This document shows positions 5,656 through 62,785 of a stretch of DNA of 64,000 nucleotides, piece after piece; the stretch's first letter is position 1, and every line of letters starts with the position of its first letter. The stretch is from Eledone cirrhosa (lineage: Eukaryota). The DNA lies in the NCBI GenBank assembly GCA_964016885.1, contig OZ024755.1:10974001-11038000 (forward strand), written 5' to 3'. Below the pieces are notes generated by a model. That model made no database searches. It was not told where the DNA came from and was given only the letters and a program-made list of their open reading frames with translations. Made by a program: the position numbers and the translations under genes.

Positions 5656-6146
5656 CCATTTTTTCTCACATTGTTCCTTCCCTCCTCATCCTGTTTTATT
5701 TCAAAGATATTTGTTGACGTATAGAACAAACAATGTGAAAAAATTAGTTTTCTTTGAATTAAAAACACCTGCCTGCTGTGATTATGACATATTGTCTATT
5801 CGACTACAGTGGGATTCAAACCTAGATTGCAGAGAACTGGAACATATATCGAGGTATTTAATCCGAGGCTCTAATGACTTTGCCAGTTTAGAGCCATAGT
5901 AAGAGTTATCCTTCCGCATTCTGTAACATTCCTTCTCTACAGATTTCAATGTAATTGTAATAAATTAGTTTTAACTGAGAATCCCCAACTGTTTATTAAG
6001 CCACATCAACATGGTGCTCATATTATTTCTTCTGCAGTATTTCAGATATTTTCTGCATTATTTATAGGATATTACACAATCTGTTTAATCCTTTATGTTT
6101 AGAGTCAGACTGTAGAAATTCTTTTATTAATGCCTCCAATTACTAT

Positions 6147-6262
6147 AATTGTTTCTACTTTAGGCACAAGGACAGCAATTATCCAGTGAATTACTGGTAC
6201 TTTATTTTATCGACCCCGTAAGGATGAAAGGCAAAGTCAACCTCGGCGAGATTTGAACTCAG
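6147..6262 (-). mobile_element. SINE family 1, 5'-truncated
   Basis: Reverse complement of the tctgagttcaaat..gccgaggttgactttgcctttcatccttacggggtcgataaaataaagtaccagt..ccttgtgcctaaagtagaaacaatta consensus seen many times in the window. Confidence 0.88.
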
Positions 6263-7069
6263 ATAATAATGATGGTGATGGATCCTCTTCCGTCGATTTC
6301 AACGATGAACATTCAGTCGTTCGATCAACTGAATATCCTAATCGCTAATGAACTTGTAAGTGGTTACGTATTCCACGGACATGTATATCTTCATGTAGAA
6401 TCAGTGTGACATACTATATCGCATGGTTGGTTATTTGAATTCCATGTACAAATCCCTGCGACGAGATTTCAAATTCAACATACAAATCTTGGGTATATCT
6501 GAAGCTATAGTAAAGATACACTTGCTCAAAATGCTAGGAATGGTTGTTATAGTATTAAAATGTCTCCGAATTATTTCAAAATTAGTGTAAGATAGTTAAA
6601 GTATCAGGGTTTTGGGGGGGTTTTTGTCATTCTCAAAGGCAAAATATTTCGTCAAGTAGAGCTGCAGCATGTTTATGGCCAAACATATATCTCGTTCTCT
6701 TCTCTGTAACTATTCCCAATACTGCATTGCCTATTTACAGTTAAGGAAGATTGTACATTTGACAGTTACCCCTTTCGTTGTTATATTTTGAAAGATTTAA
6801 TAATGTAGCTACATTTTTCTTTATCAAACTGGTGTTTGGAAAATAACTTAACAAAAGTTCTGCCATAAAATAACGGTGAAATTTTTTTATATAAATATAT
6901 ACAGTTTTGTATTGTAGAACCAGGGGCAGTTTCGTATCACGGATGTTATCCATAGTGTCAACATAGTCCCTCTGACTGGATACATACTCTTGTACCTTTC
7001 TTTCCTTCAAAGTTTTAACCAAATTATCGTCTGTTTATACAACGTCGTCTGCTTGAAACATGAAGATAT

Positions 7070-9269: not shown

Positions 9270-9545
9270 GCCTTTTACGTTCTGAGTTCAAATCCTGCCG
9301 ACGTAAGCTTTGCCTTTCATCCTTACGGGGTCGATAAATAAAGTACCAGTAATGCACTGGGGTCGATTTAATTGACTTTCCCTCCCCAAAAACTGTTGGC
9401 CTTATACCTAAATCAGAAATCATTATTATTATTATCATCGCCGAGGTTAACTTTGCCTTTCATCCTTACGGGGTCGATAAAATAAAGTACTAGTAATGCA
9501 CTGGGATAATTGCTGGCCTTGTGCCAAAAGTAGAAACAATTATTA
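9270..9545 (+). mobile_element. Two tandem 5'-truncated SINE family 1 copies
   Basis: ttctgagttcaaatcc..cctttcatccttacggggtcgataa at ~9280 and again from ~9437, each ending in an (ATT)n tail. Confidence 0.88.
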
Positions 9546-9562
9546 TTATTATCATCATCATA

Positions 9563-9710
9563 ATAACTGTTTCTACTTTAGGCACAAGGCCAACAATTTC
9601 AAGAGGAACGGAAAGTCGATTAAATCGACCCCAGGGCGTTACTGGTACTATATTTTATCGACTCTGTAAGGATGAAAAGCAAAGCTAACCTCGGTGGGAT
9701 TTGAACACGG
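9563..9710 (-). mobile_element. SINE family 1, inverted relative to the adjacent copies
   Basis: tgtttctactttaggcacaaggcc..ctggtact..aaggatgaaaagcaaagctaacctcgg..gatttgaac. Confidence 0.85.
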
Positions 9711-9865
9711 AATAATTATTATTATTATTATTTCTTTATATGAAAGCGGTGTGGATCGTTTATGACGTCAGAAAGAAAGTGATGTCGATAGACTTTAAAA
9801 AAGACTTTTAATCGCAAGTCTCTCAATACTATCTATCTATCTATCTTTCTTTCTTTCATACACAC

Positions 9866-13497: not shown

Positions 13498-14198
13498 AGT
13501 TTCTTTTATTTGCCACTAGGGCATCAAAAGTGGGACAAGTACAAAGGGGGGAGTTTACACAAAAAGGCGTCCTCAATAAGGAGGAGGCAATAACAAAATA
13601 TAAAAATAAAATAAGATATAACAAAAAATAAAATTTTTAACAAAATCCTCAATAGAGAGGAGGCGCCTTGGGGGGTCGCACACACCCCCGAAAAAAGTGT
13701 GCAACCCTTTTCCTCAGGAGCACAGAGAGGGGGTGCTCCCTCGTTCCTTCCTCTTTTCCACCTACAGGCTTATGTAAAGAGAAGGCCCATTCACACGGGC
13801 CATTCTCGCCACTTTCACCCACCTTTCATAAAAACGACTGGGGTGCAGCACCTCTCTCTCCATCCTGATCCTTCTTCCGAAATGATATCGGAAGAAACGG
13901 ACCAGTTGTTGGCCAGAGAGAAAGGTGCCTGACCTCAGTCCTTTCAGACGCGTCCACCATACAACCTCTTTCGCCATGGCTATTACGCACAGAAACACCG
14001 CCTCTGCTTCATCTTTGAAGGGGGGAGGCGGCTTGATCATTACAATAGACTCGGTGGTCAACCGGATCGGTCCCACCCTTGACAGCAGTTGTTCGACATA
14101 GCCCCACAGATCGGCTACGCCCGAGCAGTGTACCAATGCGTGTGCAACGGTTTCCTCGTCGCACACGCATCTGGGACAGATCTTTTTGGCGGGGTCCC
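13498..14198 (-). mobile_element. Tx1/L1-clade non-LTR retrotransposon, 5'-truncated (ORF2 C-terminal Zn-knuckle region + 3' UTR) within (GATA)n
   Basis: Open frame PAKKICPRCVCDEETVAHALVHC...W.YVEQLL..AKEVVWWTR..F.ERW (CxxC..ET..H...C zf-RVT-type motif), stop at 13762, 3' UTR with AATAAA; (GATA)n on both sides. Confidence 0.88.
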
Positions 14199-14223
14199 TA
14201 GATAGATAGATAGATAGAAAGAT

Positions 14224-14329
<106 letters not shown>

Positions 14330-14421
14330 ATAAATAAATCGATAGCTAGATAGATAGACAAATAGACAAATTCATATATATATATATAGAGAGAGAGAGA
14401 GGGAGAGGAGCAAAGGTGTAG

Positions 14422-14511
<90 letters not shown>

Positions 14512-14979
14512 CATACATATACAGTACAAGATGGGAGGCGTGATATCTGTGCTGTGATTTCTCTGAGGAATGTATTCTTAATGCTATGTTGGCCAAACAC
14601 TTATTACTAGGCACAAGTAGATGTTAAAAAACCTGTGGGATACGAAACGAAGGGATATATAAGTTTGTTAAGACAGAATGGAATTGTGAAGTACAGAATT
14701 TGAGGAGAGCAAAGAGCATACGAATATAAACAACAACAACAGCAGCAAAAACAATAATAACCACATCAAATAAATGAACCAGAGAGATAAATACGCTGAT
14801 TTCTCCTTTTAACTCTTCCAAAAGCTGGACTTTAATGGCTTCTAAATCCTTATTGCATGTATTTAAACTTCACGTTTCTATTTAGGACTATAGCTTTTTA
14901 CTAATGAGTTTTAGAATTAATGAAACTTCATAAATCTATATTAGCCAGGTAAAAAAAATGCTGAAATGTAATTCGTGGT

Positions 14980-27402: not shown

Positions 27403-27615
27403 GGTAACAAGTTATAGTTATAGGTAATCCAGTTAGAGGTTGTAAGTACTCTGCGTCGCGGATAGTTTTAACGTACGGCTTTGTTTAACTCAACAAGATG
27501 TTTCCATAGTTAGGTAGCGAGTTCGCGGTAATTCCTATGTAGGTTATACTTGGAGTAATAATAGAGAAAGAATGAAGAGTAACATGGTTGGTTGTACAAC
27601 AAGGGGCTTTATTTC

Positions 27616-27730
27616 AGGTATTGACAATTGTTTCATTGATCAGGTGAGTCTAGAGGCCGCTAATCGCTCGAAGTTGCGTCACTCGATCTCCATTACATTA
27701 TTTACCTCTGACCAACTCTTCAGAATACCT
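27616..27730 (-). ncRNA. Type I hammerhead ribozyme (complete, extended helix II)
   Basis: Minus strand: aggtatt-CTGAAGA-gttggtcag[..]ctgatcaat-GAAA-CAATTG-TC-aatacct; 7-bp helix I, palindromic helix III, GUC site. Confidence 0.85.
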
Positions 27731-27735
27731 TAGAA

Positions 27736-27847
27736 TATTCTGAGGAGTTGGTCAGAGGTAAATAATGTAATGGAGATCGAGTGACACAACTTCGAGCGAT
27801 TAGCGGCCTCTAGACTCACCTGATCAATGAAACAATTGTCAATACCT
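27736..27847 (+). ncRNA. Type I hammerhead ribozyme (helix I shortened by the inversion junction)
   Basis: tatt-CTGAGGA(27740-46)-gttggtcag..ctgatcaat-GAAA(27829-32)-CAATTG-TC(27840)-aata. Confidence 0.75.
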
Positions 27848-27899
27848 GAAATAAAGCCCCTTGTTGTACAACCAACCATGTTACTCTTCATTCTTTCAC

Positions 27900-29270: not shown

Positions 29271-29445
29271 AGTATCGGTAGAGGGTTGGACGCCATGCTT
29301 TCTAGCATAGTTAAGTCCCTTTATGGTCTGAGTTCAAATCCCGTCGAGGTCAACTTTACCTTTCATCCTTAAGGGGTCGATAAAATAAAGTACCAGTAAT
29401 GTACTAGGTAATTACTGGCCTTGTGCCAAACGTAGAATCAATTAT
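29271..29445 (+). mobile_element. SINE family 1
   Basis: agtatcggtagagggttggacgccatgc..tctgagttcaaatccc..cctttcatcc..ggccttgtgcc, close to 42578-42756. Confidence 0.9.
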
Positions 29446-30669
29446 ATTAATCTAGAATTGGCAGATTCATTTTAGCTTTGAATAGAATGCTTTGCAGTAT
29501 TTGTTGCGGATCTCTGCACTCTGTGATCTAATCTGGTTTAGGTCGATTTTGTCTTTCATTTAACACATCTGTGACTTCACCAATATATTTTCCTCACTCA
29601 CAAATAGAGACCTACCTAAAAACTAAAGAGTTGAACATCACATTGAACTTGCGAGTGTAGGAAGACCTCCAAACGTCGTGGGCACTGATCCTATTTTTCG
29701 CTTTAATTAATAAAAGCAATCTATACTGCTTCGCCTTGAAATCGAGCTCAATTCCCAAACCATTATTTCATACACCATTATATAGATAACCTTTATTTCC
29801 TGGCGGAAACGTAAGAGTGCCGTCATGAGAGACAGCCTGAATTTCAGCATTTTTAAATATAGCAGGGCCCGCACCAGTGAGAAGTGGGAAGAGTCGGTAT
29901 CAGTATTGAACTGCTGCTTTATATATAGGCCACGAAACGAAGAAAGGCAACGTTGACCTTCGCGGTGGGGTTTGAAATCAGATGGCTGTGAGCCCGAACA
30001 AAAGCAGAAGTATATTTTATGCGACTCCCGCCAACGCATATACTAATTCCCCACTTTAACAGTATATAATGTATACGATTATAACAATGTGTAGTACTGT
30101 ATGTAACAAAGAATGTTTCTCCTGCAGCTCATGTGGATTTTACTTAGTTGAAAACAGAAGTCACTAATTCGATTAAAATCTCTATTGTGAAGCGGCTTTG
30201 GTATTGGAAATGTTTCTGGGGTCAATAGTAATGGTTCCTAAACAGTTTATCTTCTTTATTACTGCAAGCTAAATGTTTTTCATGTTACTACTCTACATAC
30301 GTACACACACACATATATATATATATATAGCTATGTGTGTGTCTGTGTATATGTATATGTCTGGGTGTGTGCATATGCGTGCGTACTGGTGTGCTTTTGT
30401 AAATGTGTGTCTTTGTGTAAGTGTGTGTCAGTGTAGGTGTTTGTGAGTATGTTTTTGCTTGTGTAGCTCTGTGTATCAATATGTTATTGTGTCTGTGTAT
30501 ATCTGTTTGAATGTGTTTGTATATATATATATGTATCTATGTCTATAAGTGTGTTAATTCCCTCTGTTTAATCATACAAACACACCCAAATCCTCCTCAA
30601 TATACACTTTCAGTGTATTTCACTTTATAAAATCAATTGTTTCTTAAATTTAATTACGTAACACACGCA

Positions 30670-32038: not shown

Positions 32039-32595
<557 letters not shown>

Positions 32596-35550: not shown

Positions 35551-36132
35551 GGGTTGTACACACCCCGAAAAAATGTACAACCCTCATCTCCAGGAGCACC
35601 AAGAGTGTGTACTCCCCTCCTCTCTTCCTCTTTTTCCTCAACCTACAGGCTTATATAGAGAGAAGGCCCAATCACTCTGGCCATCTTTGCCACATTCACC
35701 CACCTTTTATAAAATTTGCTGGGGTACTGTACCTCTCTCTCCATCCTCATTCTTCTTCCAAAATGATATTTGAAAAAACGAATCAGTTGTTCGCCGGAGA
35801 GAAAGGTGTCTGATCTCAGCTCTTTTAATCTCGTCCAACATATAACCTCTTTCACCATGGCCATAACACATAGGAAAACCGCCTCTCCCTCGTTTTTGAA
35901 GGGGGGTGGCGGTTTGATCATGACAATGGACTCGGTGGTCAACTGGATTTGTCCCACCCGCGACAATAGTTGTTCTACATGCCCCACAGGTCGGTAACGC
36001 CCGGGCAGTGTACAAATGCGTCAGCGACGGTTTCCTCGTCGCGCACGCATCACGGACAGATCTTTTTCGAAGGGTCCCTGCCCGGGCGCCCGTGTCTGTA
36101 GAGCTTGTCTCGAACTGGTAGAGCTCCTTGTA
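35550..36132 (-). mobile_element. Second Tx1/L1-clade LINE fragment (ORF2 C-terminus, disrupted) abutting (GATA)n
   Basis: GALPVRDKLYRHG..DPSKKICP*CVRDEET, then VEQLLSRVGQIQLTTESIVMIKPPPPF..GPSLYISL; clearly homologous to 13762-14198. Confidence 0.88.
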
Positions 36133-36142
36133 AAAATGATAA

Positions 36143-36191
36143 ATATCTTGAATCGATTTTCAAAGCTCTTTGGCTTCTCATCAGAAGATAT
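36143..36191 (-). ncRNA. Minimal type I hammerhead ribozyme, intact
   Basis: Minus strand: atatctt-CTGATGA-gaagc caaaga gcttt-GAAA-ATCGAT-TC-aagatat; perfect 7-bp helix I, 5-bp helix II, palindromic AATCGATT helix III. Confidence 0.88.
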
Positions 36192-36574: not shown

Positions 36575-36985
36575 AGATGTAAGAAAAACCACAGACCCTC
36601 CATCTCAACTCTACTTTTGAAAAGCAGAAGGAACTGCGAAACCGGTAAAGGAACCAAATAAATATATATATATTTTTTTAAATAAGATTCCAGTTGCATT
36701 TTCGATTTCATCTTTTTTCTTTAGACGTTCACTCGTGTAGGACACCTCGGTTATTGTTTTCACCACTCCAAATAATGACGTTAAATCTTCGTTTTTTTTT
36801 CGTTCTTTGCCAGGAAACGTTTCCACGAACCAAAGTATCGTCTTCCTGTCTTCCTTTTCGGTTGCAACGTTTTTCGAAATATTTACTTTTGCGTTCACAG
36901 ATTGATTTTTTGGGTTTCAGAAGATCCCGTTAAGAGTGAAAGCAACGATTCTTTGCTTAAACTTTAATCTGTTATTTTAATAAAT
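36575..36985 (+). mobile_element. Penelope-like element family C, single arm in (TA)n
   Basis: Homologous to the arms of 38669-39003; TA tracts on both sides. Confidence 0.75.
36613..36651 (+). ncRNA. Hammerhead ribozyme, U3-A8 core variant
   Basis: ctt-TTGAAAA-gcag aaggaa ctgc-GAAA-CCGG-TA-aag. Confidence 0.7.
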
Positions 36986-38432: not shown

Positions 38433-38436
<4 letters not shown>

Positions 38437-38612
38437 CCGCCCCATCATCCCCCAAAAACCCATTTCCCCTGTGAAAAAATAGTTTAATTAGGAATAAGTA
38501 TAAACTAGTAATAAGTATTAGTTTACATTCAGTTTTAGTTTTAAATTTTTACCCGGTTGCGCATTTCTTATGCTTTTCAAAAATAATTTTGAAATAGAGT
38601 GCTCGTGATTTT
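38433..38612 (-). mobile_element. Family D element, single diverged arm with variant hammerhead (38546-38586)
   Basis: Homologous to 54195-54340; minus strand TTGAAAA-gcat aagaa atgc-GCAA-CCGG-GTA. Confidence 0.7.
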
Positions 38613-38805
38613 TGTATATATATATGTATATATATATGTATATATATATGTATATATATATATATATAATTAGAAAGTGAGGTTTTTTTTACAAAATGAA
38701 AAATAACCGAGGTGTCCTACACGAGTGGAAGTATAAAGAAAAAGGGATGAAATCGAAAATGAACTGAAGTCTTATTTTTTTTTAAATATATATATTTATT
38801 TGGTT

Positions 38806-38843
38806 CCTTTACCGGTTTCGCAGTTCTTCTGCTTTTCAAAAGG
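38806..38843 (-). ncRNA. Hammerhead ribozyme, U3-A8 variant (inverted arm)
   Basis: Exact reverse complement of 38891-38928. Confidence 0.75.
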
Positions 38844-38890
38844 TGAGTTTAGATGGAGGGTCTGTACCACAGACCCTCCATCTCAACTCA

Positions 38891-38928
38891 CCTTTTGAAA
38901 AGCAGAAGAACTGCGAAACCGGTAAAGG
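38891..38928 (+). ncRNA. Hammerhead ribozyme, U3-A8 variant
   Basis: cctt-TTGAAAA-gcag aagaa ctgc-GAAA-CCGG-TA-aagg; helices I and II paired, palindromic ACCGGT helix III, GUA site. Confidence 0.78.
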
Positions 38929-38996
38929 AACCAAATAAATATATATATTTAAAAAAAAATAAGACTTCAGTTGCATTTTCGATTTCATCCCTTTTT

Positions 38997-39084
<88 letters not shown>

Positions 39085-42010: not shown

Positions 42011-42577
42011 ACTGTGTGTGTGTGCGTCTTTGTGTATGTTGATGTTTATCCATGATGAAAAAATTAAGTCATTTTATTTACCTTACACGTGTTTCTGCAA
42101 ATATGTGATGGAAAATAGAAACGGTGAAAAAATATTTCACTCCATTATTAATAATATAGATGTGTCTACATTTTACAATTTCAACATTGTGTAAGATATA
42201 CAAAACGTTTTAACATGTTCATGTTGGATATCCCTCCATTTTTATTTATGTGGTCTGTACATCTGCATTCATACGGCACGTCGGGTGTGTTTACTCAAAG
42301 TTTCATTACTATACTCTACAGATTATACATGTGTAGAATTGATTCTAAGTTTTATTTCTATTTTGCCGATTGCGCTACTGCATTAAGCTTGAAATTTGTT
42401 GGCATAAATTTCATTATCCCCACCTGAACTTTTACTCTCCATATATATATATATGTCTGTGTGTGTGTGTGTGTGTAATATATATGTGTGTGTATGTTTA
42501 TAGAAACAGAGAGAGAAAGAGAAAACGACTCTTCGTTTTAAGGGACACACACATCTGCCACTTAACTCTCTCCATGA

Positions 42578-42756
42578 TTGGCAGTATCGGTAGAGGGTCG
42601 GACGCCATGCTTTCCAGCATAGTTACGTCCCTTTACGATCTGAGTTCAAATCCCGCCGAGGTTGACTTTGCCTTTCATCCTTACGGGGTCGATAAAATAA
42701 AGTACCAGTAGTGCACTGGGTAATTGCTGGCCTTGTGCCTAAAGTAGAGACAATTA
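42578..42756 (+). mobile_element. SINE family 1, near full length
   Basis: A-box-like tggcagtatcgg, B-box-like gagttcaaatcc, conserved core cctttcatccttacggggtcgataaaataaagtaccagt. Confidence 0.9.
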
Positions 42757-46807: not shown

Positions 46808-48469
46808 TTCTTTCTCTCTCTTTCTCTTTCTCTCCCTTACTTCTTTCTATCACTCTCTTTATCGTTCTCTCTTAATATAGCTCTTCTCTCTTCCTTTCTC
46901 TTTCTTTGACGTTCTCACTGTTTATATATGGTCGCTCAGTATAATATAAATGAGTGTATGTGTATGTGTGTATAGTCTTTCTTGATTTGATACAATATTT
47001 TTAACTTACTCTCCTACTTCTTTCTAAATGTGTTCCTATATTATATTTGCTCAATATCCATATAACGAACTTACTGAATTATACTCTCAACTGAGAATCT
47101 TTGGAAAGTAATATTAAATTCCTCTATGACTGCAAACTGTAGAGACGGGTGGGAGCGGGTGGAGTAACCGTTACCAAAAACTACCAACCATTTAATAAAC
47201 TGGTGAGAGGGGAAAAGGCGCAGTTTTCGAGCATTAAATAGACTTAAATAGAAGACAATGTCGTTGTACCCTGTTCTGTTGTTTTTACGGCCTATTTGTA
47301 TTATGAGCTGTGGGGACTATAGTAACTTTATGATGGTGTTCCAATATCGTTTATAAACCATATTTAAATGGCAACCACTAAAACTGAATGACTCTTTAAA
47401 CAGAATAGATCAGATTTGGTAAATTATAAATTTCTTTGATATATATTGTTAATAATGCTGGTGAGTAAAAGAACAGATTAAGAGATGCTTTAAATGCATT
47501 GAATTCTTTACGTTAGTTTGTGACAGTTATGCAGTTATATCCCTTTATGTTCTGAATTCAAATCCTGTCGCCAATCCATTTCTCTTTCATCTTTCATACC
47601 TCTGAGCTCGATATCAATAAATACCAATACTGTGATCGATATGGTATACTATAGTCTCTAGCCAGTGAAATAACCGGCCTTGTTTCTACGTTAGAAATCA
47701 ATGTTTGACAAAGGAACAAAGCTAATTGATTGTACGTGGGGGGATGAAGTGATTTACTCTTGATGTAATGGAATCTGTGTAGGTGGACAAATAAGAAGTA
47801 AACTGAATTCGTGATGGGGGGTGTGCTCTTAGAACGTAAAGGGAGACTGTATGTAACGCAAATTTGGAGGAGGGTATAGTCGATAAGATAGATAGGATAG
47901 ATAGGATAGATCCCAATACCTGACTGTTAGTTTATTTTATTGATCATTTTTGTCGAACCGCTAAGTCACAGGACATAAATACAGATACTGACACATACAT
48001 ATATACATATATAGAGAGAAAGAGTACAAGCTTCTGTAGTTTCCGTCTACCGAAATTTCATTCACAAGAGACTGGTCAATCTAAGGATATGGTGGCTATG
48101 TAAACCTACTTAGGATTAAGCTGTAAATTTCATTTTATTTCTCATTTTATGTGGCGTCAGAAAAGTGTAAGTTGTAAGGACGTTAGTAACAGTCGGATGC
48201 ACTGGGTAATTGCTGGCCTTGTGCCTAAAGTAGAAACAATTATATTTCTAAATGAAGTGACTAGAGAAACAAGTGCACAAACAAGAAAATAAAGTCAAAG
48301 CCAAACGAAAAAAAACAATAAGAGAAAAATATAGAAATAATGACGTCATATAACAAACCAATTGAAGATTAATTAATGTATTTAAGTGGTAGGAGAGGGG
48401 ATGTAACATACCACACAAACACAGCCATTATTCGATCCTAAATTGATATCATCGAATTATATATTTATT

Positions 48470-50010: not shown

Positions 50011-51698
50011 TGATTTCTAGGCTGTTCTTATTCATTCTAAGAATTCTTCTTTCCCTACACTAGCTGTTAGTGTTTCATGGATATTTGTACCAAGTTCCTG
50101 AAAAGATCGAATTGATGAATTGGAGTAGAAATCTTTGATTTGTTCAAAGAACCATTGATATTTTTCATAACGACTGATTCTCTACGGTTTATCAAGGATT
50201 TCTTATTCCATCTTGTCTTTGATCTTCGATATATTTTTACGTTATATTACTATGATTTTTGACTCACACTTCTTTTTTAATTGTATCGTTGTCGTTATTA
50301 CTGTTATGTATATTGTCTTTGTAACGTACCCTTCATCCGACGATTATTATTATTTTTATTATTAATATTATCATCATCATCATTGGTGGTGGTGTTGTTC
50401 TTGTTGTTTTTCTTCTTGCGTATGTCCTTGTCGTGGTTTTTTTTATCTTGTAACAGAGCTTCCGAAAAAAGATATTTTACCACGTTTACTTAATAGCAAA
50501 AACTTTTTTCTAACAAATGAGATTTGGATCATTTCAACATCAATCTCATTATTCTGTACTAATAAAGAAGATTTCTCTTTTGGTATTTTTTTATTGCATA
50601 CACATTTTTGACAAATATCAATTTTCATTTGTTTATTACTTACTCAAAATGTGTAACAAGAGGAGACGATGGCCACAAACGCAAACGCCCCCGAAAATTT
50701 AAGTAACCTGGAGATATGTTAGATGAAATGTTTTGCTCAGTGATTTAATGAGTCGTCCTCTCTAGGAAATGTTAAGACCATGAATCAAAAATATGATGGG
50801 ACAGTTCTGACTGGAAATCCGTTGGTCATAAGTCTGCTTGAGCAGAGCTGGTAGGGGCTAAATTGCAACAACAATAGCAACAGCAGCACCAATTTTATCC
50901 TTAATTGTTGTTATCATGTTTTATGACTTGTTCGCGAACAGCTGGAACACTCGTCGTCTGAACCGATGGAGATCCAACATACACATATGAATGACATTTA
51001 TGTGTTATGGAATCACAGATTAAACTATAAAGTGAAAGAATCATTCCTTTATTTATTATTCATTCATACAATTATTTCTTGCGATTCTCTTAAAATCGAT
51101 AGTTAGAAAGAATGATGTCTGGGCTGGGAGTGTATTGGTTAAATTGAAAATATTGATAAAGCGGAGATAAGCTTGGAGCATTGCGGTAGCGAAGAGGAAA
51201 CTAGGTTATGAATAAACAGAACTATTGTGAAATATACAGCAAGTGAAGGCGCTTGGCCTAGTGGTTAGGGTGTTGGTTTTATGATCTATAGGTCATGGGT
51301 TTGAATCTTGGATCAAACTACGGGTTATGTTCTTAAGAAAGACTCGGCTGTCCTTGCCCAACATCTACTTGTTTTGGAGTGGGTTGGCTTTGTGACTTTT
51401 ACAGAACGTATTCTATTTCATTTGTTAATGAAATCGTCGGAGATTTCTGACGATTTCATCATCCAAAGAAACAGAGCTTGTCACGTATAAGTCATTTCTA
51501 AATCAAAGAGAATTAAGTACCCTCTTTACCTGATGTATTGAATATCTTACTTTTATTGTGATTCCAATCCGCTTATATATGTATGTATGTATATTAGAAT
51601 GGTGTTCCGTAACAGCATTCTAATATACATACATATATATATGTATGCGTGTATGTATATATGCATGTATATATGTATATACATATATATATATATAC

Positions 51699-53700: not shown

Positions 53701-54075
53701 AGTATAGATTACGGAAGCTGAATCAATTGAAGCCTTTTCATTACAGATATGGGAGAAATATAGTGATTCAGTAATCTTTTCTAAGGATCAAATATGAAAC
53801 AAGATATTAGAAACGTTAATGAGATTGTGAAATTATTTACTCAATCCTTTAGGAAAATAATTGCATAAGGGAAATGATATGTTTTCTATCAGTAACTGAC
53901 ACCGAGTCTCCAAGACTTTCTTTTCTCTATATGCTCAAAATGTATTGATTCTTTTAGGTATTCTCAAAATCTCTATATATAAACACAGATTCACACATAC
54001 ACGCTCACTCACTTGTACACATACACACATATACTCACATGTGTATATTTATATATATATATATATGTGTGTGTA

Positions 54076-54117
<42 letters not shown>

Positions 54118-54121
<4 letters not shown>

Positions 54122-54542
54122 AAAGAATAGAGGTGTAACACACAAGTTATTATATATTGGTAAACGGAATAGAAAATGCTGACAAATTGTTAACAGTTGA
54201 AAAATGGTTTAATTAGGAATAAAAGAGTATTAGTGATTGTATGGGTTAGTATTCAGTTGTGGTTTTAAGTTTTTAAGTTTTTACCGGTTGCGCATTTCTA
54301 AATGCTTTTCAAAAATAATTTTGAGATAGTGTCCGTGTTGTTTGCTCTGATCAGAGCAAACAGCACGGACACTCTATCTCAAAATTATTTTTGAAAAGCA
54401 TTTAGAAATGCGCAACCGGTAAAAACTTAAAAACTTAAAACCACAACTGAATACTAACCCATACAATCACTAATACTCTTTTATTCCTAATTAAACCATT
54501 TTTCAACTGTGAACAATTTGTCACCATTTTCTATTCCGTTTA

Positions 54543-54550
<8 letters not shown>
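54118..54550. mobile_element. Fold-back element family D in (TA)n, ~400-bp palindrome
   Basis: Arms 54151-54350 / 54351-54550 with zero spacer (ctctga|tcagag) and only a few mismatches; 33-bp extension on the left arm. Confidence 0.9.
54386..54425 (+). ncRNA. Variant hammerhead-like motif (U3-A8 plus GCAA); mirror copy on - at 54278-54315
   Basis: ttt-TTGAAAA-gcattt ag aaatgc-GCAA-CCGG-TA-aaa. Confidence 0.55.
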
Positions 54551-54628
<78 letters not shown>

Positions 54629-54720
54629 TATATGCATGTGCAACCTAAGTACACAGTACACAGCACAAACAAAAAGATGGTGTAGGACAGAACAAAGGAG
54701 AGACACAAAATAACAAATTA

Positions 54721-56979: not shown

Positions 56980-57074
56980 TAAAAAGCTAACCTTGGCAGG
57001 ATTTGAACTCAGAAGGTAAAGAGCCGTAACTATATGCCTCAAAGCATGTTGTTCGATGGTCTGCCGATATGGCC

Positions 57075-62286: not shown

Positions 62287-62596
62287 ATTTATGCAAGTTG
62301 CTAATGTTGCTTCCTGGATGATGCAGATTGCACTTTGCTAGCAGCTATCTATTATTTTCATTAAGCTGTCTTTCTTGTTTGTCTAGTGATACGGGTGTCG
62401 GGCTCTCGATGGTAAAGTTGTGGGTTCAATTCCCAGAACTGTAGGCATCTTGTGCTTTGTGTGATGCACTTCCTCTCGCGTTCATCTAGTTTCTTTATAT
62501 GTGTGTATATGTCCGTATCTCCTGGTGGAGTTTTAGAGATACTGCAGTGACATACGGCGTTTCTAGGGCATTCTTTTAAACGTGGCGAGTAATGAT

Positions 62597-62785
62597 AATG
62601 GTTTCTGATTTAGACACAGGTTCAACAATTGGGGGGGGGCGAGGAAAGTCGATTACATCGACCCCAGTAAATGCCTCCGGAAGGATGAAAGGCAAAGCTA
62701 ACCTTGGCGGGATTTGAACTCAGAACGTGAAGAGACGTAACTCTATGCCGAAAAGCATGTTATTCAACCGACGATCTACCAATAG
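62597..62785 (-). mobile_element. SINE family 1
   Basis: ggtttctgatttagacacagg..gtcgattacatcgaccccag..aaggatgaaaggcaaagctaaccttggcgggatttgaactcagaacg. Confidence 0.85.

Follow-up and report, generated by a model that had tools for sequence, protein, structure and literature searches.

Among the systems described so far, the minimal hammerheads of metazoan Penelope-like elements (PLEs; Cervera and de la Pena 2014, PMC4209133) are the closest to the locus considered here, and within that paper the nearest forms are the U3-A8 hammerhead of Schistosoma mansoni Cercyon and the small hammerheads with a palindromic helix III of shrimp, Drosophila and mosquito. The U3-A8 pair is a known natural covariation in PLE hammerheads (PMC4209133) and elsewhere (PMC3088659), opposite-strand hammerhead pairs 100-700 bp apart have been noted in PLEs, and in Drosophila Penelope the end of an intron maps to helix I (PMC4209133). 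Fig. S3 of that paper shows 56 representative PLE hammerheads, every one with GAAA and none with GCAA, from a search whose descriptor favoured GAAA. The marks described for PLE insertions are an inverted 5'-truncated copy, a tail of 30-40 bp at one end and microsatellite targets; PLE hammerheads may process RNA or may merely be carried along, and the Naiad PLEs, which lack canonical hammerheads, are present at high copy number (PMC8557442). In Poseidon PAc of Anolis carolinensis, insertion was unaffected by catalytic mutants of the hammerhead and mainly used unprocessed RNA as template, the cut site coincided with neither the start nor the end of any RNA-seq read, and the hammerhead cleaved only with its protein; deleting the 5' side of the pLTR as far as +20 of the ORF left insertion intact, and the tail corresponded to the distance between two reverse-transcription start sites (PMC11167929).

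The repeat family at the centre of this analysis, termed family D, resembles the hammerheads of PMC4209133 in its type I topology, U3-A8 pair, G10.1-C11.1 pair, dimer-suited palindromic helix III and short helix I, and resembles the PLEs of that paper in occurring mostly as dispersed truncated copies and in opposite-strand pairs 100-700 bp apart. It differs from these hammerheads by a family-wide C13, a helix I of three A-U pairs, a hairpin that traps U3-A6 and the lack of an extra base between positions 9 and 10.1. With PAc it shares a hammerhead shortly upstream of the 3' end of the copy, an optional tail of 30-40 nt, AT-rich targets and copies that span the cleavage site, whereas the core of PAc is canonical and cleaves with the help of protein, and the PAc ORF begins within stem II, no ORF being seen in family D (PMC11167929). 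Non-LTR retrozymes (bioRxiv 10.64898/2026.07.22.740005) are likewise non-coding, carry a type I hammerhead and are probably moved by PLE proteins, but they are head-to-tail tandem repeats, unlike the single or head-to-head copies of family D in the window. The A6C, U13a insertion and U15.1-A16.1 variants also depart from an 'invariant' core base, A6C and U15.1-A16.1 keeping low activity; these are assayed, rare single loci, whereas the A13C of family D is known from sequence and is not named in the available parts of those papers (PMC3088659, PMC7151607). A13 is altered in two cricket clones (PMC2837043). A family-wide A13C was not found in the hammerhead and PLE literature surveyed, which left out Lunse et al. 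on PLE variants and the mutant heat map of PMC9901934, and C13 in a PLE hammerhead is apparently undescribed.

The window, i.e. the whole 64,000-nucleotide stretch of DNA that was analysed, has a G+C content of 32.6% and looks like non-coding animal DNA rich in repeats. None of its ORFs (69/69 scanned) reaches the cut-off of any Pfam family, the PLE domains (RT and GIY-YIG) are absent among the Pfam matches of these 69 ORFs, which include two weak sub-cut-off matches, neither of them to a PLE domain, and no recognisable ORF was seen by eye in the window 3' of the family C and D cores. Two copies resembling the 3' end of a LINE ORF (13673-14529 and 35551-36078; 81.5% over 531 bp) give a weak zf-RVT match (Pfam, E=0.0079) under the cut-off. 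A multi-copy SINE-like repeat occurs at 6139-6269, 9270-9712, 29271-29451, 32198-32407, 42576-42756, 48185-48246, 56983-57069 and 62590-62783, and presumably resembles a repeat common in octopus genomes. Further hammerhead-like motifs are also present. A third palindrome (27566-27897, 97%), the left arm of which is about 130 nt longer and is followed by (TA)n, holds a core at about 27740-27840 (+) that is mirrored on the minus strand and that, judged by eye, is canonical (CUGAGGA...GAAA) and combines a palindromic helix III with a helix I of 4 A-U pairs and a very long helix II (~80 nt). A fourth hammerhead family, at 36184 to about 36151 (-), is a canonical type I form (CUGAUGA, GAAA) with a palindromic helix III and a 7-bp helix I, directly downstream of which lies a LINE-like fragment. 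A weaker hammerhead-like match at 51447-51482 (+), with CUGACGA, GAAA and a 3-bp helix II, sits in a 64-bp imperfect palindrome.

The earlier note had read both arms of a palindrome near 54 kb, together with a diverged copy near 38 kb, as a hammerhead-like core with U3-A8 and GCAA, and this reading was confirmed base by base (Table 1). In standard numbering, the family D core consists of U3 U4 G5 A6 A7 A8 A9, helix II, and G12 C13 A14 A15.1, followed by the palindrome CCGG, U16.1 and A17. All three copies in the window carry the UUGAAAA box with its covarying U3-A8 pair, and all three have GCAA in place of the hammerhead GAAA at positions 12 to 15.1; G5, A6, A9, G12, A14, A15.1-U16.1, G10.1-C11.1 and A17 are intact throughout. 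Helix II has 4-5 bp and is closed by G10.1-C11.1, with predicted pair probabilities of 0.94-0.99 in the 54-kb copies and 0.70-0.88 in the 38-kb copy. The combination of A15.1-U16.1, H17 and a palindromic helix III is complete in two of the three copies, namely both 54-kb arms; the 38-kb copy has CCGGG, the extra G of which breaks the helix III palindrome. Helix I can form three U-A pairs, followed by an A-A mismatch, in line with its earlier description as weak and A-U only. A pattern left open at position 13 matches the window six times, three times with GCAA (54391+, 54312- and 38580-; family D) and three times with GAAA (36617+, 38839- and 38895+; family C), and has no matches in 100 dinucleotide shuffles. 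Both departures behind the label 'doubly variant' are present, but the novelty was overstated, U3-A8 having already been described (PMC4209133, PMC3088659).

Table 1. Coordinates of the family C and D features in the window.
Feature	Position	Strand	Details
Family D core, right arm	54391..54421	+	U3=54391, helix II 54398-54411, G12=54412, C13=54413
Family D core, right arm, 3' part	CCGG 54416-54419, U16.1=54420, A17=54421	+	Predicted cleavage after A17
Family D core, left arm	54282..54312	-	U3=54312, C13=54290, A17=54282
Family D core, 38-kb copy	38580-38550	-	U3=38580, C13=38559, A17=38550
Competing 6-bp hairpin	54379..54394	+	Pairs U3-U4-G5-A6 with upstream bases; mirror 54309-54324 (-)
Head-to-head palindrome of two family D copies	54158..54545		97.4% self-match, centre about 54351/54352
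32-nt tail, left arm only	54119..54150	-	Arm-to-arm match stops at 54151/54552
(TA)n flank, right	54546..54630		Left end flanked by (TA)n/(TG)n at about 54045-54118
Independent diverged family D copy	38436..38607	-	Between (TA)n tracts
Family C palindrome	38736..38999		U3-A8; normal GAAA; helix I of 4 bp, two of them G-C
Single family C copy	36589..36985	+	Core 36617-36647

A shifted core register, in which helix II takes in the GC of GCAA, loses G12 and was rejected by inspection; a reading frame opened by the ATG in helix II would end after four codons. No Rfam family was matched at its gathering score in the whole window, and no hammerhead was among the 28 weak Rfam matches at 54100-54600; this silence is uninformative, because at the gathering score Rfam also missed the canonical 36184 hammerhead as well as family C. 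Weak matches to miRNA precursors in the same interval reflect the palindrome only and were rejected. The source cited for inhibition values of hammerhead core mutants is reportedly Ruffner et al. 1990. By those values (PMC4075628, citing its ref. 9), changes at A6, A9 and A13 inhibit 10-100-fold and changes at C3, G5, G8, G12, A14 and A15.1 more than 100-fold, A13 being one of the milder core positions.

Of 24 listed sequencing runs, 20 contained part of the stretch, none of these being an RNA run; the results below come from four runs, which were compared with the left arm of the 54-kb palindrome at 80% likeness and with a 2% reporting floor, and make no use of the other 20. Run X1 contributed 1,453 contigs (540 at at least 99% likeness, then 441, 314, and 158 below 90%), across which no base other than C13 reaches 2% of depth at position 54290. 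No substitution at or above 2% occurs anywhere in 54244-54326, where the only common change is the loss of 1 nt from loop II (19% of depth); a 2-nt insertion lies just outside, at 54327, and 54149-54243 has 12 substitutions at or above this level, one of them private to the window copy. Summed word depth is near 9e5 over the core, which marks a very abundant repeat and is not a copy number, and depth does not drop across the cleavage site (806k at 54279-54286, 945k at 54287-54294). Run X14 gave four low-depth contigs, one across the core with no differences there, and run X17 gave one low-depth contig with U4 changed and position 13 unchanged; both may be traces, and no horizontal transfer is claimed from them. 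Run X22 yielded 0 reads and carries no weight. The earlier note had asked whether the family consensus would prove to be GAAA. It came out as GCAA with C13 fixed in X1, within the limits that X1 is possibly the source of the window, that contigs drop rare variants and that sequences below 80% likeness are unseen.

Family C provides the comparator with a normal core. The scaffold match between the two families that had been pointed out earlier reflects homology, with 32/43 columns identical in the core and 11/14 upstream, and the families share the U3-A8 box, the ends of helix II, the CCGG helix III, upstream sequence and a palindrome with one longer arm (the left arm, by about 65 nt, in family C). 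Family C differs from family D in having GAAA and, in its 38-kb copies, a helix I of four pairs, two of them G-C, and an active dimer predicted to lie at most 1.4 kcal/mol from the best fold. The single family C copy continues in the 3' direction for about 200 nt beyond the end of the palindromic one (36721-36985, +), and then runs into (TA)n; this extension may be the start of the element body. Given that GAAA is found in family C and in other hammerheads, A13 is likely to be the ancestral state.

The surroundings of the cores in family D are those expected of a PLE end. The two 54-kb arms are joined at their 5' ends, with their 3' ends pointing outward into (TA)n, and differ by three substitutions, one 2-nt indel and two unpaired central bases. 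The distance from A17 to the end of the copy is 131 nt in the right arm and 163 nt in the left, which places the hammerhead near the 3' end. Both family D insertions have (TA)n on both sides, which is weak evidence alone because simple repeats make up 17,220 of the 64,000 bases. The structures described for PLE (EN+) pseudo-LTRs are nevertheless present together, i.e. an inverted 5'-truncated copy joined at the 5' end, a one-sided tail of 32 nt, an AT-rich or (TA)n insertion site and a hammerhead near the 3' end. By analogy with the insertions described in PMC8557442, 54158-54545 would represent a PLE pseudo-LTR fragment and its inverted 5'-truncated copy. This membership is by structure only, because no RT or GIY-YIG ORF was found. 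The cleavage site lies inside all six family C and D copies, which start at 54352, 54351, 38607, 38868, 38867 and 36589, 27-42 nt upstream of U3, the two independent family C insertions having nearly identical starts; this common start may mark the 5' end of an RNA rather than random truncation.

The two 54-kb arms are probably the product of one insertion event, and the sharing of A13>C by separate insertions accordingly holds for two independent insertions rather than three. The near-identity of the arms had been attributed to recent activity or gene conversion. Gene conversion is unneeded, an inverted 5'-truncated copy with a one-sided tail being the usual structure of a PLE insertion (PMC8557442). 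At 54192 the left arm has a private base, the base of the right arm making up 99.8% of X1 depth, and at 54179 the base of the right arm does not appear in X1 at the 2% floor; the arms have thus drifted apart since they were inserted. With the arm differences being private changes, a single insertion and later drift account for the palindrome. No family D member was found in the viral, metagenome and prokaryote collections scanned. Thirty-two loci in these collections (13 viral, 9 metagenome and 10 prokaryote) agreed with the pattern only, with a best BLAST match of 29-30 nt, and were rejected as chance and excluded from all counts, as were four more prokaryote loci with only a 22-nt pattern match; a second pattern had no matches in the viral collection.

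Folding predictions indicate that the family D core is occupied by a competing structure. In all three copies and in all three window sizes, U3-G5 are predicted to be paired at about 0.99 and helix I has a probability of 0.0, and the hairpin at 54379-54394 is also part of the best fold. The corresponding probability of helix I is 0.30-0.68 in the two 38-kb family C copies and near 0 in the family C copy at 36617. The active domain-swapped dimer of family D, computed for the right arm only, lies 15.2 kcal/mol above the best dimer fold, the gap in the three family C copies being 1.4, 1.4 and 4.8 kcal/mol, all of these being nearest-neighbour energies that leave out tertiary contacts and protein. 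Folding z-scores of the short motifs are insignificant (-0.88 for family D, -0.23 for family C). An upstream UCAA able to pair with the core UUGA occurs at an equal spacing of 8 nt in family C (38883-38898) and family D (54379-54394), the pairing being extended to 6 bp in family D and to 8 bp in its 38-kb copy; this may be a shared off-switch or just descent. The hairpin that would trap U3-A6 tilts the balance towards a crippled ribozyme, although the poor predicted fold does not prove inactivity, since the Anolis hammerhead is inactive without its protein. The 54-kb palindrome itself is not a working ribozyme locus, because its transcript would form a hairpin of about 194 bp. The earlier note was sound in reading a hammerhead and in naming two outcomes, a core variant that still cleaves or a family that keeps moving after losing catalysis, but it had overlooked this hairpin.

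Whether the motif is better conserved than its flanks was also considered, the copies compared not being independent of one another in any of these statistics. Between the 38-kb and 54-kb copies, ungapped identity is 41/42 in the hairpin and core and 61/72 in the 3' flank (Fisher p=0.053); with gaps counted the contrast is 41/44 vs 62/101 (p=5e-5), inflated by a repeat indel of 7-8 nt. In X1, variable sites number 0/43 in the hairpin and core and 11/155 in the flank when the windows are set by the motif (p=0.13), and 0/83 vs 11/117 (p=0.003) when the boundary is drawn after seeing the data. The possibility, raised earlier, that the motif is no better conserved than its surroundings is therefore opposed by a trend in favour of the motif, but only at a borderline level, and the comparison points to constraint with the same reservation. 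The upstream bases of the family D-specific hairpin are identical at 12 of 12 positions between the 38-kb and 54-kb copies; with the trapping hairpin conserved to the same degree as the core, any constraint could have a cause other than catalysis.

The explanation to which we give slightly better than an even chance is that family D is a crippled hammerhead within a PLE end fragment (pseudo-LTR), or within a non-autonomous derivative of one, that spread without cleavage. Three handicaps would stack, namely the 10-100-fold cost of changes at A13, a helix I probability of 0.0 and the modelled gap of 15.2 kcal/mol, and by analogy the PLE anatomy, the continued insertion of PAc catalytic mutants and the abundance of Naiad argue in the same direction; the six of six copies that span the cut site and the even X1 depth are as expected if uncleaved RNA was copied. 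Set against this are the absence of further core decay in the three copies and in X1, a core better kept than its flank (p=0.053), the milder effect of changes at A13, the protein requirement of PAc, the helix I probability near 0 in the family C copy at 36617 as well, and, for the PLE part of the reading, the lack of an RT or GIY-YIG ORF, with membership by structure alone. Several of these points would also fit a possible, though doubtful, alternative in which a natural U3-A8/C13 variant cleaves slowly in a domain-swapped dimer joined by the palindromic helix III, the hairpin being an off state freed by a PLE protein or partner RNA. Such a variant would be expected to keep every other catalytic position intact and fixed, as observed, and its core better than its flank (p=0.053, and p=0.003 for the post-hoc 0/83 vs 11/117); changes at A13 cost just 10-100-fold (PMC4075628), the natural A6C and U15.1-A16.1 forms keep low activity (PMC3088659, PMC7151607), PLE hammerheads can be protein-assisted (PMC11167929), and a shorter upstream pairing of equal spacing exists in family C. 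It is less easily reconciled with the stacking of the handicaps and the 15.2 kcal/mol folding gap, the insignificant X1 contrast with motif-set windows (0/43 vs 11/155), the loss of the helix III palindrome in the 38-kb copy and the occurrence of GCAA in none of the 56 PLE hammerheads of Fig. S3 in PMC4209133, whose descriptor favoured GAAA.

If conservation is real, it may also reflect a motif that does not cleave and is selected for another job, such as a structure bound by the PLE protein or an overlapping promoter or splice signal of the pseudo-LTR. The hairpin (12/12 upstream bases) is kept as well as the core though it opposes the active fold, all six family C and D copies begin within the same short distance upstream of U3, and the intron end of Drosophila Penelope falls in helix I (PMC4209133); the 5' part of the Anolis pLTR is, however, dispensable for insertion down to +20 of the ORF (PMC11167929) and the conservation signal is borderline, and we regard this explanation as improbable. 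An origin outside the PLEs, as a MITE-like foldback or chance palindrome in which the hammerhead likeness or C13 is an accident or assembly error, is barely credible: it would agree with the lack of an Rfam hammerhead match and of a PLE ORF in the window, but Rfam also missed family C and the canonical 36184 hammerhead, none of the 100 shuffles matched, C13 is present in all three copies and fixed in X1, and the repeat is homologous to the normal-core family C and has a one-sided tail.

Under the favoured explanation of a crippled hammerhead spread without cleavage, family D carries U3-A8, C13, a helix I of three A-U pairs and upstream bases able to pair with U3-A6 in a hairpin, with C13 fixed among D-like sequence in X1. 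The ancestor of families C and D would have had GAAA, with A13C arising once in a source element, and most likely this source element gained A13C and a stronger hairpin, lost most of its cleavage and amplified on. Its insertion may have proceeded as in the Anolis PLE, the RT-endonuclease nicking both strands of AT-rich DNA and reverse transcription starting from two nearby sites 3' of the hammerhead on uncleaved RNA, which would leave two inverted copies, one of them with a tail. Cleavage being unneeded for insertion, a source element that cleaved little or not at all could still amplify.

The presence in one genome of family C, which is intact, and of family D, with its A13C, weak helix I and trapping hairpin, offers a natural pair for testing the need of PLEs for their hammerheads. 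A silent family D would lend genomic support, of a confirmatory kind, to the in vitro result that PLE spread does not depend on cleavage; an active one would add to the natural core variants and mean that descriptors demanding GAAA undercount these ribozymes. A more specific version of the latter case, which we consider unlikely, is that family D is a family-wide U3-A8/C13 hammerhead that still cleaves, its U-turn being closed off by a dedicated hairpin that either the Penelope protein or another copy of the RNA would have to open. If true, a highly amplified retroelement would carry a ribozyme that can be switched and is slow by design, and searches based on GAAA would miss such ribozymes in many animal genomes.
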